Shown here one piece after another: positions 55,233-63,040 of a stretch of 64,000 nt of DNA. A model generated the notes under the pieces. The model was not told where the DNA came from, ran no database searches, and saw only the letters and a list, made by a program, of their open reading frames with translations. The stretch spans positions 55,730-119,729 of the forward strand of contig JAZDJR010000018.1 of the NCBI GenBank assembly GCA_043803815.1, written 5' to 3'. The stretch's first letter is position 1, and each line of letters begins with the position of its first letter. This stretch comes from Candidatus Micrarchaeota archaeon. Lineage in GTDB: Archaea; Iainarchaeota; Iainarchaeia; Iainarchaeales; JAGVWC01. A program made the translations under genes and the position numbers.

Positions 55233-58200
55233 ATGAATTCAAACCGCGGCTTTGCCATTGCGCTCGACGCGCTCATGGCCATCATTTTAGTCACAACCAT
55301 TATCGTTTTTTTAAGCAGCCAGCCATTGACGGTTTTTCCAACCATTGACAACAGCCAGCGGTTAAGCCAGACGCTTTCCTCTACTTTTACCGCCTTGGAC
55401 AATGCGGGCGTTTTAAACGAAACGCTGATTGACCAAACTTTTAACCAGGATTCCGTTGACTCGCTGTATTTGCAAGCCAAAAAACTGCTTCCCTCCAACA
55501 CCGGCCTGGCAATATCCGTCACAGCTTTTGACACCGCGGAAGACTACCAAAATTGCCGGCAAAACCCGTCCTTTTCAAATTGCTTTCCAACCAACGGAAA
55601 CTGGTTTGTATCCTCCGACCAGGACACGCAAAACTGCACAGACACCTTGGACGAATGCATCACACAACACGCAGTCCGAAACGACCGGGACGTCATTTAC
55701 GGAAAAAAAATAATTGTTAACCGCCAAGCCACCGGCGAAACAACCGGCGGAGAAACAACCTGCGAAGTCGCCGGCATTGAACTAAAAAACAAACCCAAAC
55801 CACGCCCAACAATCGCCATGCTGGACGAAAACGGCCCCCCAATACTTGAATTTGAAACCCTGGCCGAAGGAACCAATCCAGCCAACACCATGATTTGCAC
55901 GGACGACGAAAACACAGACCCGCCCCCAGAAAACACAGTTTCAACCATTACATTGCACACGCGCAATCGGACACGCTCACCAATCGACGTCGTACTAGTC
56001 CTTGACAAAAGCGGAAGCATGAGCAAATTGGACATGAACCTTCAAAATCCGAACAGCGGACAATTCAACGAAGGAAAATGCTTGGATAATGCATATGCCT
56101 CTGCAGACTGCAATGCCGACACAACGATTCCAAGCAATTGCGGAAATTATTCCATTCCCGGCATTGAAACTTGGATTCCAGTGGGAAGCTTTGATTTGAA
56201 TCAGGATACCTACGGCCGATTAATAGCAGGCGGCCCCTATGCAAACAACATTGCTTTTTGGAACCAGTATACTTCAATTCAACCAGGTTCCACGTACCAG
56301 TGCTCAAACGCCAAAATACGGATAAAACAGCCCGGAACCGGAACCTATTTGTATTCACAGGGAAATCCAAGCATGGATTTTGCTTACATTGCCGCTTGGG
56401 TGAACCCATACCCTGCAATGATTGGTTTCTGGGACGTGGAACTATGGGCTGACCAGCCAACCCAAATTACAAGGCCGCTTTCGGTTTCCATGTGGAAAGG
56501 CTCTCGGCCCGCAGACATAATTAATGATGGGGCTGTACCGGGAGTTCCAAAAGACTCCAGCTGCACACCCAATGAATCGGACTGGCATCCAGTAGGAACC
56601 ATTTCAATAACCGATTCGGGTTTTCATACCTTAAGCGCAGCCGTGATTCATAATTATAATTATCCGGAAGGAATTTGCGGAGTGGGAGTGCGATTAAGAG
56701 ACCCAAATGGCGCAATTGTCGGAACATACGGCCCAAGCAAAGGCTCCCCAGTAACCACTACCTGTGGCACCAATTGGGATGACCCATTAAGTAGCACAAG
56801 CCCCTACGACCCCATTGTATCTCCCACGGGAAACTATACCGTTGAAGCTTGGGCGGACAGAGACGTAACCGTAAGCAGCATTATATACCAGCACAAAGTG
56901 TTTGTTTCCAAAATAGAGCCCATTACACTAATAGGGCCCACTGGAATGGGGAAAACGTATCCGCCGGAACGTTACCCCACAGTTCCGTATAATGCTGGGC
57001 TGTGTTCAAGCCCGCCTGCAACCTGCTATGCCAGCAGTGTCACTCAGGGAACCTGCACCTGGCGCGGACCGGATTATACTGCCACTATGAAGGATTTGAG
57101 TTCGCACCCGATTTCGGCATCGCCGCGCGGAATGCGCGCAGACATAACCAATTATAATTATTCAGGGGTTTGTGCAAACCAGGTTTTTAGAATTATCAAT
57201 CCATCCGACGCCGTAGTCAATAGCGTAGCAGGAGCCAAGCCAACCGGCAACACCTGCATGACCATTAATCGGAACAGTGTGTATGACAACGGCGTTACTT
57301 GGCCTGGCTCGGGCGCCTGCACCGATGCAACAGGCGCGCTTAGTCTGGGCACCTGGAAAGTCCAGGGCTGGAGCGATGTTCAAAGCCATTTTACCGTGAC
57401 TTGGAAACAGGAACGTATTGACGCCGCACAGCAGGCTGCCGGCAATTTTATCGACAATTCGCATTGGAGCGAACTTGACAACATCGGAATCGTCTCCTAC
57501 TCGACAACAGCCTCATCCGACACGGGCTTATTGGAAGCCAGCCCAGCCAATAAAGCGATATTAAAATCCTCAATGAACAACCTGACTCCCAACGGCGAAA
57601 CATGGACCGAAGGCGGAATACTGGCAGCCACAGAATTACTGACCGCTACTTCCGAAAACAACAAATACATTATTCTGCTAAGCGACGGACTATCCAACCT
57701 TCCGGCAGGAACCGGACCAGAAGCTGCACGAGTTGCGGCGCAAAGTGCTCACGAACACGCGGGAATAACCGTGTTTACCATCGCATTCGGAAACGACGCA
57801 TTACAACCCGACGGCTCCTGCAGCATCGACTTGCAAAACATCGCCCTCGCAGGCAACGGACAATGCTACCCCGCATCCGACCCAAACCAACTAAGACAAA
57901 TCTACGAACTAATCGCAGCCCAAATCCAACAAAGCCTCGGAAACACCAACCTCATCATGCCACTACCCGCAGGAACCTCGATTAAAAACCCGCAATGCAT
58001 GGATACCGACGGAAATCAGTCAGCCGCAGAATGCCTGAACGGAATCTTTTTACGAACCGACAATAACAGTTCAAGTTACACCGAAACCGAATGGCCAACC
58101 GGCTGGCACCGCATAAACTCCACCAACGAATCAATAGTATTCAAAGGAATCGCCATCAACAAAAACCTTTTAGACGAATGGTGGACCGCAACATTCAAAC

Positions 58201-58802
58201 TCGCCGTGCCCTGCAACTCCTCCTTCTGCATCGAAAACCTCACCCTGCCACCCACATCCACCTACATAGAAGAAACCCGCTGGAGAATCCCATGGCCACC
58301 CGACGACGACAACGGCACCAAAGAACAACAAACAATCACAATTCAAAAAAAAGACCTCCGATTCAAATTCCTAAACGGAACCATCACCGACAACAACGTT
58401 GACTTGACAATGGAAATCAAAAACACGGGAAACTACCCAATCGACTTTACCGGTATTTCCCAAGAAGACGGACAAACAGACCCTAATCCCTGCGACCAAG
58501 GAACCATTGTTCAGATTTACCGAAACATCTCTGAACCACCCGTGTTCAACACAACCACTACTCCGACCGCCAACTGGATTAAAAGCGCCTGCATCCAACC
58601 CGACAGCCCGATGGATATCAACGCCAGCACCACCCAAATCATCAGCATCCCAAACGAAGCAGAAGCCAGCGAAGGATACCTATACGGAATCATCCAACCC
58701 AACTTTCCCGAATGCCGACAAAACAACTGGGACAAAATCCTATGCTTCTCCAACCCAAAAACAAGATTTTTTTTGGTAGAATACTGGGGATGGATAAAAT
58801 AA
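55233..58802 (+). CDS. Class III signal (pilin-like) protein with a split vWA domain; putative pilus tip adhesin
   Basis: NRG/FAIALDALMAIILV; MIDAS DKSGS ... GETWT ... LLSDG with a ~460 aa insertion after DKSGSM. Confidence 0.8.
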   Translation: MNSNRGFAIALDALMAIILVTTIIVFLSSQPLTVFPTIDNSQRLSQTLSSTFTALDNAGVLNETLIDQTFNQDSVDSLYLQAKKLLPSNTGLAISVTAFDTAEDYQNCRQNPSFSNCFPTNGNWFVSSDQDTQNCTDTLDECITQHAVRNDRDVIYGKKIIVNRQATGETTGGETTCEVAGIELKNKPKPRPTIAMLDENGPPILEFETLAEGTNPANTMICTDDENTDPPPENTVSTITLHTRNRTRSPIDVVLVLDKSGSMSKLDMNLQNPNSGQFNEGKCLDNAYASADCNADTTIPSNCGNYSIPGIETWIPVGSFDLNQDTYGRLIAGGPYANNIAFWNQYTSIQPGSTYQCSNAKIRIKQPGTGTYLYSQGNPSMDFAYIAAWVNPYPAMIGFWDVELWADQPTQITRPLSVSMWKGSRPADIINDGAVPGVPKDSSCTPNESDWHPVGTISITDSGFHTLSAAVIHNYNYPEGICGVGVRLRDPNGAIVGTYGPSKGSPVTTTCGTNWDDPLSSTSPYDPIVSPTGNYTVEAWADRDVTVSSIIYQHKVFVSKIEPITLIGPTGMGKTYPPERYPTVPYNAGLCSSPPATCYASSVTQGTCTWRGPDYTATMKDLSSHPISASPRGMRADITNYNYSGVCANQVFRIINPSDAVVNSVAGAKPTGNTCMTINRNSVYDNGVTWPGSGACTDATGALSLGTWKVQGWSDVQSHFTVTWKQERIDAAQQAAGNFIDNSHWSELDNIGIVSYSTTASSDTGLLEASPANKAILKSSMNNLTPNGETWTEGGILAATELLTATSENNKYIILLSDGLSNLPAGTGPEAARVAAQSAHEHAGITVFTIAFGNDALQPDGSCSIDLQNIALAGNGQCYPASDPNQLRQIYELIAAQIQQSLGNTNLIMPLPAGTSIKNPQCMDTDGNQSAAECLNGIFLRTDNNSSSYTETEWPTGWHRINSTNESIVFKGIAINKNLLDEWWTATFKLAVPCNSSFCIENLTLPPTSTYIEETRWRIPWPPDDDNGTKEQQTITIQKKDLRFKFLNGTITDNNVDLTMEIKNTGNYPIDFTGISQEDGQTDPNPCDQGTIVQIYRNISEPPVFNTTTTPTANWIKSACIQPDSPMDINASTTQIISIPNEAEASEGYLYGIIQPNFPECRQNNWDKILCFSNPKTRFFLVEYWGWIK

Positions 58803-62005: not shown

Positions 62006-63040
62006 ATGAATCAAAAAGGGGTTTTTTTGACTTTGATGGTTTTTTTGGTGGCGATTGTAGCGGTATCGCTTGCGGTTTCCAATTATAATCTGGAAAAACA
62101 GCGCGAGGTGTTTACGGCCGAACAGACCGCGTTTCAAAAAGTCAACGAGCAGTTTGAAAAAGTGGATTCGGAGTTCAAAAACCTTGCCGCGTTAAGCAAA
62201 AATGCGCGTTATCACAGCCGCTTGTTGCCGTTTGACTATAATTTTTCATCCGACGAAAAAACCCTGCGGATTTCCCAAAAGCTTCCGACCGCTCCATCCG
62301 AATTTTCGTCGTTTTACGATCTGCTGAACACCTATACTGTTTTGTGGTCCAATCCGCGCCTTAACACCGGAATCAAAACCGATTTTAATTTCGGCGATTT
62401 GAACAATTTGGACTGGGGCGGTTCCATAGAATTTCCGGATATCAATTACCGGATTTTGCCCGGCTGCGTTGTGTATTCGCTGGATTACAACAAGGAATCC
62501 CGCCAAAAAATCATGCGCTTCAAAAAAGGAACCGACGGAAAAGACCATTGTTCGTTTAGCTGGGCTCCGATAAAAAAAATTTCCGTCAAAGTAATCAGCC
62601 CGCTAAATCCCAGTATGGAAACGGGTGGCATCTTGTGCGAAGGGGATTTTGATTTCGGCGCTGGCGCCTGCAGGACAACCCAGTTTACCGAAAACCCGGA
62701 CAATCCGCCGTTTGTCGAATTCTCGTATCAGGGGCCGGCAAGTTCCAAATATGTTTCCGCGTTTTTGACCGGAACAACCCCGCCCGACACTCCTCCGCTA
62801 AGTTCGGTTTCGTTTTGGCCTGACGGAATAAGCAGCGGAGACCGCTTGGTGTTTAGCGTCAATTCGGGAAGCGACGACTTATTAAAATTGAATCTGGGCC
62901 CCCAAACCGGTTCAAGCACATTTTTTGGAATTGTTGAAATAACCTTTGACCGGCCGGTGGATTCGTTTGAACTGCAGGGGTATGGTTTTTCAGTTCAAAA
63001 TCCGATTTTTGCGGTGTCGCGCCAAGCCTCCGAACGATAA
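62006..63040 (+). CDS. Minor pilin-like protein (class III-like signal)
   Basis: MNQKG/VFLTLMVFLVAIVAVSLAV; abuts the previous gene. Confidence 0.72.
   Translation: MNQKGVFLTLMVFLVAIVAVSLAVSNYNLEKQREVFTAEQTAFQKVNEQFEKVDSEFKNLAALSKNARYHSRLLPFDYNFSSDEKTLRISQKLPTAPSEFSSFYDLLNTYTVLWSNPRLNTGIKTDFNFGDLNNLDWGGSIEFPDINYRILPGCVVYSLDYNKESRQKIMRFKKGTDGKDHCSFSWAPIKKISVKVISPLNPSMETGGILCEGDFDFGAGACRTTQFTENPDNPPFVEFSYQGPASSKYVSAFLTGTTPPDTPPLSSVSFWPDGISSGDRLVFSVNSGSDDLLKLNLGPQTGSSTFFGIVEITFDRPVDSFELQGYGFSVQNPIFAVSRQASER

Follow-up and report, generated by a model that had tools for sequence, protein, structure and literature searches.

Five genes with class III signals from an Iainarchaeota-type archaeon probably encode the minor pilins and tip adhesin of an Epd/Tad-like type IV filament

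A 64,000-nucleotide (nt) stretch of contig C18 (C18:55730-119729, forward strand, assembly GCA_043803815.1), hereafter the window, was analysed together with the genome from which it comes. The organism is a member of the DPANN archaea (Iainarchaeota/Diapherotrites type) with a small genome; its assembly comprises 1.08 Mb in 36 contigs and is 85.6% complete. Close to the end of the window lie five genes, here named g1 to g5, whose products begin with class III-like signals. In our opinion, these genes quite probably encode the minor pilins and the tip adhesin of an Epd/Tad-like type IV filament, the motor of which is encoded just outside the window. A sequence-only reading of the same DNA had proposed a minor-pilin tip complex with adhesin domains. 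This proposal is now supported by the presence of a motor, by synteny, by the combination in g1 of a pilin module and a vWA domain with a metal ion-dependent adhesion site (MIDAS), and by fold matches to tip adhesins.

The five genes and the motor beyond the window

All five open reading frames (ORFs) are located on the plus strand, as read earlier (Table 1). The same reading had described them as a cluster of five co-directional genes; the co-directional run is real, but an antisense transglutaminase-like gene intervenes between g1 and g2. The intergenic gaps in the g2-g3-g4-g5 run are 3, 11, and 0 nt, and g2 is the first gene of the operon. TATA-like sequences were found approximately 25 nt before the ATG of g1 (TTAATAAAAAA) and of g2 (CTTTATTAAAA), which would fit two archaeal transcription units with short leaders.

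The window itself contains no prepilin peptidase, ATPase, or platform protein, as had been noted. The downstream search that had been recommended for the ATPase and TadC was successful: a gene of a T2SSE-type ATPase starts 1259 nt beyond the window end and is followed by two TadC-like genes. All three have the same orientation as the pilin genes, with overlapping start and stop codons. The best NCBIfam matches of the ATPase were generic (FlaI, 273.8 bits; TadA family, 183 bits; both below cut-off). The ORF between g5 and the ATPase gene, described previously as open and disordered from 63166 on, is real and leaves the window, but its product is not only disordered. This protein, p718, consists of 718 amino acids (aa), or 699 aa from the ATG at 63166, is basic and of low complexity, and has a winged-helix-like domain at its C-terminal end; the end of its gene overlaps the start of the ATPase gene. 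Across DPANN loci, the conservation of p718 is confined to the C-terminal ~65-90 aa, which gave a weak match to a MarR-type winged helix-turn-helix (E = 1.9e-4, below cut-off), and the variable part, a basic region of low complexity, ranges from 81 to 825 aa. It may be one of the 'coiled-coil proteins' of the DPANN pilus loci of Hamm et al. (2024).

A separate small pilin with the N-terminus QSALEYLMTYGWA is likely the major subunit. A small pilin with the mature N-terminus QSALEYLMTYGWALIV often follows TadC2 in the canonical form of the block; in 28 of the 52 relatives' loci, such a gene was present no more than 3 kb from TadC2, and here it is located ~4 kb downstream.

Class III signals

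Orthologues from 80 DPANN loci were aligned gene by gene. In all five genes, a short basic leader is followed by a hydrophobic helix of ~20 residues, and in nearly all orthologues the leader ends with K/R at position -2 and G/A/S at -1. The signals assigned earlier, Q+1/E+5 in two proteins (g2 and g3) and Q+1/E+6 in one (g4), were confirmed and are conserved: Q+1 was found in 133/135 and E+5 in 135/135 orthologues of g2, the same residues in 21/22 and 22/22 orthologues of g3, and Q+1 and D/E+6 in 56/59 and 58/59 orthologues of g4. The remaining two proteins had been described as lacking glutamate. Neither has it, but g1 carries a conserved aspartate at +6 and only g5 is acid-less. Thus, D/E+6 was present in 64/64 orthologues of g1, along with F/Y+1 (49/64) and A+10 (60/64), g1 itself having F+1 and D+6. 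Orthologues of g5 start with I/V/L+1, and none of the 37 has an acidic residue at positions +1 to +13. Each of the five orthogroups therefore has its own conserved signature, and the signals are not due to chance.

For g2, a weak match to TadE (PF07811, E = 0.011) was obtained, and PF04021 (Class_IIIsignal), corresponding to the DUF361 family of EppA substrates (PMC3875500), was matched by 11 of 21 g2 orthologues. Elsewhere in the genome, PF04021 had eight matches, three of them over the cut-off and none corresponding to g2-g4 of the window. Neither Pfam nor NCBIfam provided a family for g3, g4, g5, the g1 insert, or the g1 C-terminus.

The vWA pilin g1

The vWA domain recognised earlier in the largest protein was confirmed in g1 (PF00092, E = 1.5e-11) and the match is divided between aa 238-265 and aa 725-891. 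From the N-terminus, g1 consists of the class III signal (MNSNRG/F, the slash marking the cleavage site), a pilin-like module (~aa 1-125), the first beta-strand of the vWA domain with D258-x-S260-x-S262, an insertion, the remainder of the vWA domain, and a C-terminal beta domain. The insertion of ~470 aa (aa ~270-720) directly follows the MIDAS loop, and the vWA domain resumes at aa 720-910 with T790 and D818. The MIDAS is therefore complete (D258, S260, S262, T790, and D818), and its positions are conserved.

Structures of g1 and g5 were predicted with AlphaFold2 (AF2) using alignments of 30 and 24 sequences, respectively. The model of g1 had an overall predicted local distance difference test score (pLDDT) of 57.7, with ~80-93 for the N-terminal pilin-like module, ~90-96 for the vWA domain (strand 251-258 plus aa 720-910), and <40 for the insert, the fold of which is unreliable. 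Top Foldseek matches of g1 were the sortase-pilus tip adhesin SpaC (2.3e-10), other vWA proteins, and the type V pilus tip protein Mfa5; PilB of Streptococcus sanguinis was matched with E = 3e-6 over ~249 columns. A sequence search of g1 against PDB gave no matches, PilB included.

Among Iainarchaeota-type homologues, the insert behind the MIDAS loop varies in length from 97 to 734 aa. Lengths of g1 homologues are bimodal: the proteins either comprise the pilin module alone (139-173 aa) or measure 640-1483 aa. In other lineages, the large modules are borne by g2, g3, or g4 instead of g1. These proteins are therefore modular pilins, in which small pilin modules scaffold exchangeable binding modules.

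Cysteine-rich g3 and acid-less g5

The protein with cysteine repeats is g3, as had been noticed. It has 34 cysteines, 32 of which are within a C-terminal module (aa ~157-350) that contains three related C..NTC..G..CG...NGCG...C..C units. Most g3 orthologues are only 118-148 aa long and represent the pilin module alone, which identifies the cysteine-rich part as an added module; in some genomes, the orthologues reach 534-552 aa.

The AF2 model of g5 (pLDDT 80; predicted template modelling score 0.75) showed an N-terminal helix (residues 3-65) followed by an all-beta domain. An exhaustive search among 1.84 billion proteins yielded 479 cluster representatives of the g5 family at E<=1e-3. All named homologues are annotated as 'hypothetical protein', and the family is without a Pfam or NCBIfam model. 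In bacterial type IV filaments, a subunit without the conserved acidic residue (GspK; CpaL has Ala at the matching position) is regarded as the first, apical one (PMC11870444). By analogy with GspK and CpaL, the acid-less g5 is a candidate capping subunit.

Conservation of the gene block

For the synteny survey, loci of 12 relatives were annotated with the proteins of this genome and then with profiles built from the first-round matches, and 80 named DPANN loci were recovered via the ATPase orthologue. The canonical order of the block is transglutaminase-like gene (divergent)-g2-g3-g4-g1-g5-p718-ATPase-TadC1-TadC2. The block is syntenic across the order and also beyond it, occurring on contigs with the labels Iain-, Woese-, Pace-, Aenigmat-, Micr-, Parv-, and Altiarchaeota, as well as Nanoarchaeota. 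Gene-order counts were restricted to the 54 loci in which 6 kb or more of sequence precedes the ATPase gene: g4 was detected in 45, g1 in 41, and both genes in 39, and in all 39 of the latter g1 directly followed g4. In our genome, g1 is relocated; it is found upstream of the transglutaminase-like gene with its own TATA-like box, and g4 and g5 abut at 62005/62006. Two genomes of the same family, G002 and G003, retain g4-g1-g5, and elsewhere g1 lies between g4 and g5 wherever both genes were detected.

The genome contains a second, complete set of these genes in canonical order on contig C36, without a motor (Table 1). The insert of its vWA g1 comprises LVIVD beta-propeller repeats (PF08309, 1.3e-29). 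A short minor-pilin set is also present on contig C31.

Prepilin peptidase

Forty relatives' genomes were surveyed for A24 prepilin peptidases. The enzyme was found in all 40, usually in two forms of ~270 aa and ~365-400 aa. The three same-family genomes all encode the long form ~1 kb past the end of a second ATPase-TadC-TadC-pilin locus. Here, the orthologous locus is C31:5720-540, and contig C31 ends at position 1 within a pilin gene (C31:267..1). The relatives' genes located past this break point have no match in the assembly, and neither do the flanks of the short form. A true loss of the peptidase was considered and rejected in view of the synteny at the C31 end; we ascribe the absence of the gene from the assembly (see below) to a gap, since synteny places the long form just past that end. 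The sequence-only reading would have been given up if the genome lacked a class III peptidase or an assembly ATPase. Formally, the peptidase half of this holds for the assembly, but it is explained by the gap, and the ATPase is present.

The long form (~365 aa in G002) matched NCBIfam EppA with 60.8 bits (cut-off 450) and Pfam Arc_PepC, both below the curated cut-off. A hydropathy count on the relatives' peptidases gave 5-7 transmembrane segments, which is too crude to separate 5- from 9-transmembrane forms. It is plausible that the two peptidases divide the substrates between them, a putative division of labour.

Comparison with known systems

The closest architecture to g1 is that of TadG/CpaL, nearer than that of S. 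sanguinis PilB. CpaL/TadG of Caulobacter has a signal peptide, a pilin-like module, and a vWA domain with a canonical MIDAS that is split behind the MIDAS strand by two beta-rich domains; in structural comparisons it is matched best by SpaC, and together with CpaJ and CpaK it was modelled at the tip of the Tad pilus (PMC11870444). Likewise, g1 joins a pilin-like module to a MIDAS-complete vWA domain split by a beta-rich insert and has SpaC as the best fold match. In contrast to TadG/CpaL, its insert is far larger (470 aa), and extra N- and C-terminal domains are present. The likeness is one of architecture; membership is not claimable because PF13400 (Tad) found no match in the genome. The system as a whole shares with Tad/Flp (TadE-TadF-TadG; CpaJ-CpaK-CpaL) one ATPase, two platform genes of the TadB/TadC type, small Q+1-type pilins, and the weak TadE match of g2. 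Unlike Tad/Flp, it is archaeal, it has five minor subunits instead of three, including the acid-less g5 (320-350 aa) without a known fold relative, its acidic residue at +5/+6 stands against the Tyr6 logic of Flp, and it is without a secretin, TadZ, or RcpA-type part.

Judged on pilin signals, gene content, transglutaminase linkage, and peptidase types, the whole system fits the Epd-like group, which is 'clade 1' of Makarova 2016 (PMC4858521) and 'system 1' of Sivabalasarma & Albers 2026 (PMC13705601; see also PMC3875500). As in the Epd pilus of Methanococcus maripaludis, there are Q+1/E+5 signals of the DUF361 type (PF04021), and an operon combines several minor pilins with a single ATPase and two platform genes. 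The gene of the major pilin is separate, a peptidase of the transglutaminase family is linked to the locus, and the lineage has A24 peptidases of two types. The presence of two TadC-like genes beside one ATPase is not exclusive to clade 1, and transglutaminase-family peptidases are linked to the archaeal type IV pili of this clade (PMC4858521). Unlike Epd, the locus contains no prepilin peptidase gene, a winged-helix protein fused to a long basic region is encoded upstream of the ATPase, and neither a modular vWA pilin nor the g5 family has been described for Epd.

PilB of S. sanguinis (PDB 7B7P) is similar to g1 in that a MIDAS vWA adhesion module is grafted onto a pilin module. It differs in belonging to a bacterial system of the type IVa pilus (T4aP) kind, its vWA domain is without a large insert, and no sequence similarity to g1 was detected. 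In T4aP, minor pilins and a vWA protein, FimU-PilVWX(E) and PilY1, prime the assembly and end up at the tip (PMC7541494). Our locus follows the same logic of PilY1 and GspK-I-J, with several minor pilins, a vWA protein, and one acid-less subunit (g5; GspK), and the vWA paralogue on C36 resembles PilY1 in joining a vWA domain to a beta-propeller. However, PilY1 is not itself a pilin, and the likeness to T4aP and GspK-I-J is one of logic only.

Hamm et al. 2024 (PMC11291902) described conserved loci of an ATPase (CpaF/TadA) and TadC in Woese-, Pace-, Nano-, Aenigm-, Nanohalo-, and Undinarchaeota. Our ATPase orthologues come from the same phyla, and the block extends beyond them to contigs labelled Iain-, Micr-, Parv-, and Altiarchaeota. 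Annotation in two previous studies covered coiled-coil proteins along with the motor and a few proteins of the filament (PMC11291902; PMC9563170), and one of them states that the pilins could not be annotated (PMC9563170). Neither study describes the five minor-pilin orthogroups or the vWA pilin. According to the census of 2026, type IV filament genes of DPANN are rarely found in an ordered locus (PMC13705601); unlike this general statement, the present block is both ordered and conserved.

Proposed assembly and alternative explanations

We infer the following sequence of events, comprising processing, priming and tip location, capping by g5, ligand binding by g1, and alternation of tip sets. 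A24 prepilin peptidases would cleave the five leaders at (K/R)G, and the subunits would form a priming complex on the TadC platform. The ATPase would then add the small major pilin of the QSALEYLMTYGWA type underneath, so that the complex would come to lie at the distal tip. As the sole subunit without an acidic residue in the N-terminal helix, g5 would cap the apex, in analogy to GspK and CpaL; g2 and g3 (E+5) together with g4 (D/E+6) would serve as adaptors. Through g1 (D+6), the complex would project the vWA domain, with its variable beta-rich insert beside the metal site, as a ligand-binding adhesin, and the cysteine-rich module of g3 may form a second exposed surface. The envelope of a host cell, another cell, or a surface could be the ligand. 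The motor-less set on C36, with its LVIVD-propeller vWA protein, could provide the same motor with an alternative tip.

Several points weigh against this reading. No A24 peptidase was found in the 85.6%-complete assembly either with PF01478 or by tblastn with the relatives' peptidase ORFs, and processing therefore cannot be argued from this genome alone. None of the window's g2-g4 matched PF04021 at E<=1, and the matches of the g2-orthologue profile to archaellins in PDB were insignificant (E~0.1-0.3). PF13400 had no match in the genome at E<=1, g1 included. For the g5 model, Foldseek gave nothing below E=0.1 against PDB and no match to a known pilin. As the antisense transglutaminase-like gene parts g1 from g2, co-expression of g1 with the operon is not guaranteed. 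The location at the tip and the order of subunits are suggested by bacterial analogy. The weakest-supported part is the host cell as the ligand, 'host attachment' having been the earlier suggestion, because Iainarchaeota are not proven to be host-dependent.

Among the alternatives, surface display without a long filament survives best, though we regard it as rather unlikely. The class III signals would then mainly anchor large adhesins (g1, g3, and the other giant proteins with such signals), either in the membrane or in a short bindosome-like or pseudopilus stub built by the ATPase and TadC. Binding proteins with class III signals have been argued to functionalise type IV filament machineries, which is the bindosome idea (PMC13705601), and our genome encodes several giant proteins with major-pilin-like N-termini (on C11, C20, and C24). 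A subunit of 1189 aa is also bulky for a filament, but tips can accommodate large vWA subunits, as with CpaL/TadG, PilB, and PilY1 of bacteria. Furthermore, a small major pilin of the typical kind is encoded along with the locus in the 28 of 52 relatives mentioned above and also nearby here, and five subunits in a fixed order with graded acidic signatures suit a priming and tip complex better than a collection of independent anchors.

A tip complex with adhesins is also favoured over a Com-like filament for uptake of DNA or nutrients by a metabolically reduced cell, which we find improbable. The operon logic is indeed that of the comG operon of monoderm bacteria (an ATPase, a platform, and a major pilin with four to five minor pilins), and DNA import via DPANN pili has been proposed (PMC9563170). 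However, no channel of the ComEC family (PF03772) was found in the 86%-complete genome, none of the five proteins has a DNA-binding module according to Pfam and NCBIfam, and the MIDAS vWA domain, the LVIVD propeller, and the cysteine-rich module are parts of the adhesin type and not of the DNA-binding type.

The view that ordinary signal anchors or chance occurrences account for the N-terminal motifs, in unrelated surface proteins beside a pilus motor, is effectively refuted by the conservation of +1/+5/+6 within orthogroups (22-135 sequences, several phyla) and by the fixed gene order beside the motor, despite the ~57 ORFs, many of them spurious, returned by a lax genome-wide motif scan and the lack of a pilin family at curated thresholds for the proteins of the window.

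Significance for attachment of DPANN archaea

The cells of DPANN archaea are tiny, and many of them are host-dependent; the radiation is large and for the most part uncultivated. Pili have been seen bridging DPANN cells to their hosts, and published work describes conserved ATPase/TadC loci, with the filament subunits and adhesins so far largely unannotated. The locus and its relatives name candidates for these: five orthogroups of minor pilins that have diagnostic signatures at the N-terminus; a vWA adhesin resembling TadG/CpaL, whose insert near the metal site is hypervariable; and an acid-less cap subunit, the fold of which has no solved relative. The question of DPANN attachment is thus brought down to named, testable genes.

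Tad pili are thought to be derived from archaeal Epd-like systems, and our data are relevant to a possible archaeal origin of the tip subunit that carries the vWA domain in bacterial Tad pili. Tentatively, the block could be an ancient five-subunit tip machine common to DPANN and homologous by descent to TadE/TadF/TadG, in which interchangeable modules (the g1 insert and the C-terminal add-ons of g2, g3, and g4) would set the binding, with two alternative tip sets per motor in the present genome. We hold this broader proposal to be doubtful; if it were true, the block would be a switchable device for the recognition of hosts or ligands.

Neighbouring genes and additional observations

Table 1. 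Features of the pilin locus, of its downstream extension, and of the second set on contig C36. Positions are those of the window or, past its end, window-equivalent; a slash within a signal marks the cleavage site.
Feature	Position	Strand	Size (aa)	Signal, family match, or remark
DUF5752-like gene	54324-54743
Small winged-helix protein	54770..55096	+	108	Weak PF13463 HTH_27 match, E=0.017; just upstream of g1
g1, vWA modular minor pilin	55233-58802	+	1189	MNSNRG/FAIALDAL
Transglutaminase-fold cysteine peptidase-like gene	58836-59531	-		Weak matches: PF24656 CEP76 peptidase-like, 3.7e-6; PF04473 transglutaminase-like, 0.004
g2, small minor pilin	59637-60188	+	183	MNSKG/QSAVEYL
g3, minor pilin with Cys-rich module	60192 (or 60216)-61304	+	370/362	...KWRG/QTGVETL
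g4, minor pilin	61316-62005	+	229	MSNLRG/QTAMLEL
g5, acid-less minor pilin	62006-63040	+	344	MNQKG/VFLTLMVF
p718, 5' part within window	63109..64000 (ATG 63166), extends to 65265	+	718
T2SSE-type ATPase	65259-69131 (C18:120988-124860)	+	1290	PF00437, 7.9e-27; Intein_splicing, LAGLIDADG
TadC1	69128-70057	+		PF00482, ~1e-16
TadC2	69967-71073	+		PF00482, ~1e-16
Candidate major pilin	75215-75682 (C18:130944-131411)	-
Second, motor-less set	C36:16935-22667	-	169; 127; 161; 1143; 326	g2; ORF at g3 position; g4; vWA g1; g5

The transglutaminase-like gene is divergent from g2, with ATG 59441 as the likely start; assuming this start, no signal peptide was found. The protein contains a candidate Cys-His-Asp triad (FLCSL...THAFV...LLDPS). 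Its orthologues are divergent beside g2 in most Iainarchaeota-type loci. It might conceivably act in the processing or turnover of pilins. The small winged-helix protein encoded upstream of g1 is a possible regulator; its gene is a conserved member of the neighbourhood only within the family, and in G002 orthologues of this gene and of the DUF5752-like gene flank the pilin cluster.

The ATPase is considerably longer than most of its orthologues (1290 vs. ~500 aa) and carries two insertions. The first is a mini-intein of ~184 aa after ...TIED, starting with SVSG and ending with VVCHN/T. The second, located after ...EGKGGV, comprises ~530 aa with a LAGLIDADG domain and starts with CLYPG; its C-terminal junction is either not canonical or not clear. 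The orthologue of the same-family genome G002 (1244 aa) probably also carries both insertions. Between TadC2 and the candidate major pilin, ~4 kb (C18:127000-130848) are occupied by genes of the toxin-antitoxin or defence type, encoding a nucleotidyltransferase (DUF2204), a protein with a PIN domain, and one with Schlafen AlbA_2 and HATPase_c_4 domains; in many relatives, TadC2 and the pilin gene are direct neighbours.

Elsewhere in the genome, giant secreted proteins with N-termini nearly identical to those of the small major-pilin type are encoded at C11:3693-1 (>1230 aa), C20:209-2284 (691 aa), and C24:20756-23704 (982 aa). Their N-termini, KG/QSSLEYLLIIGGG or KG/QSALEYLMTYGW, are followed by regions that are either rich in cysteine or Ig-like. 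Modular adhesins of this 'major-pilin-like' kind seem to be a general feature of the genome.

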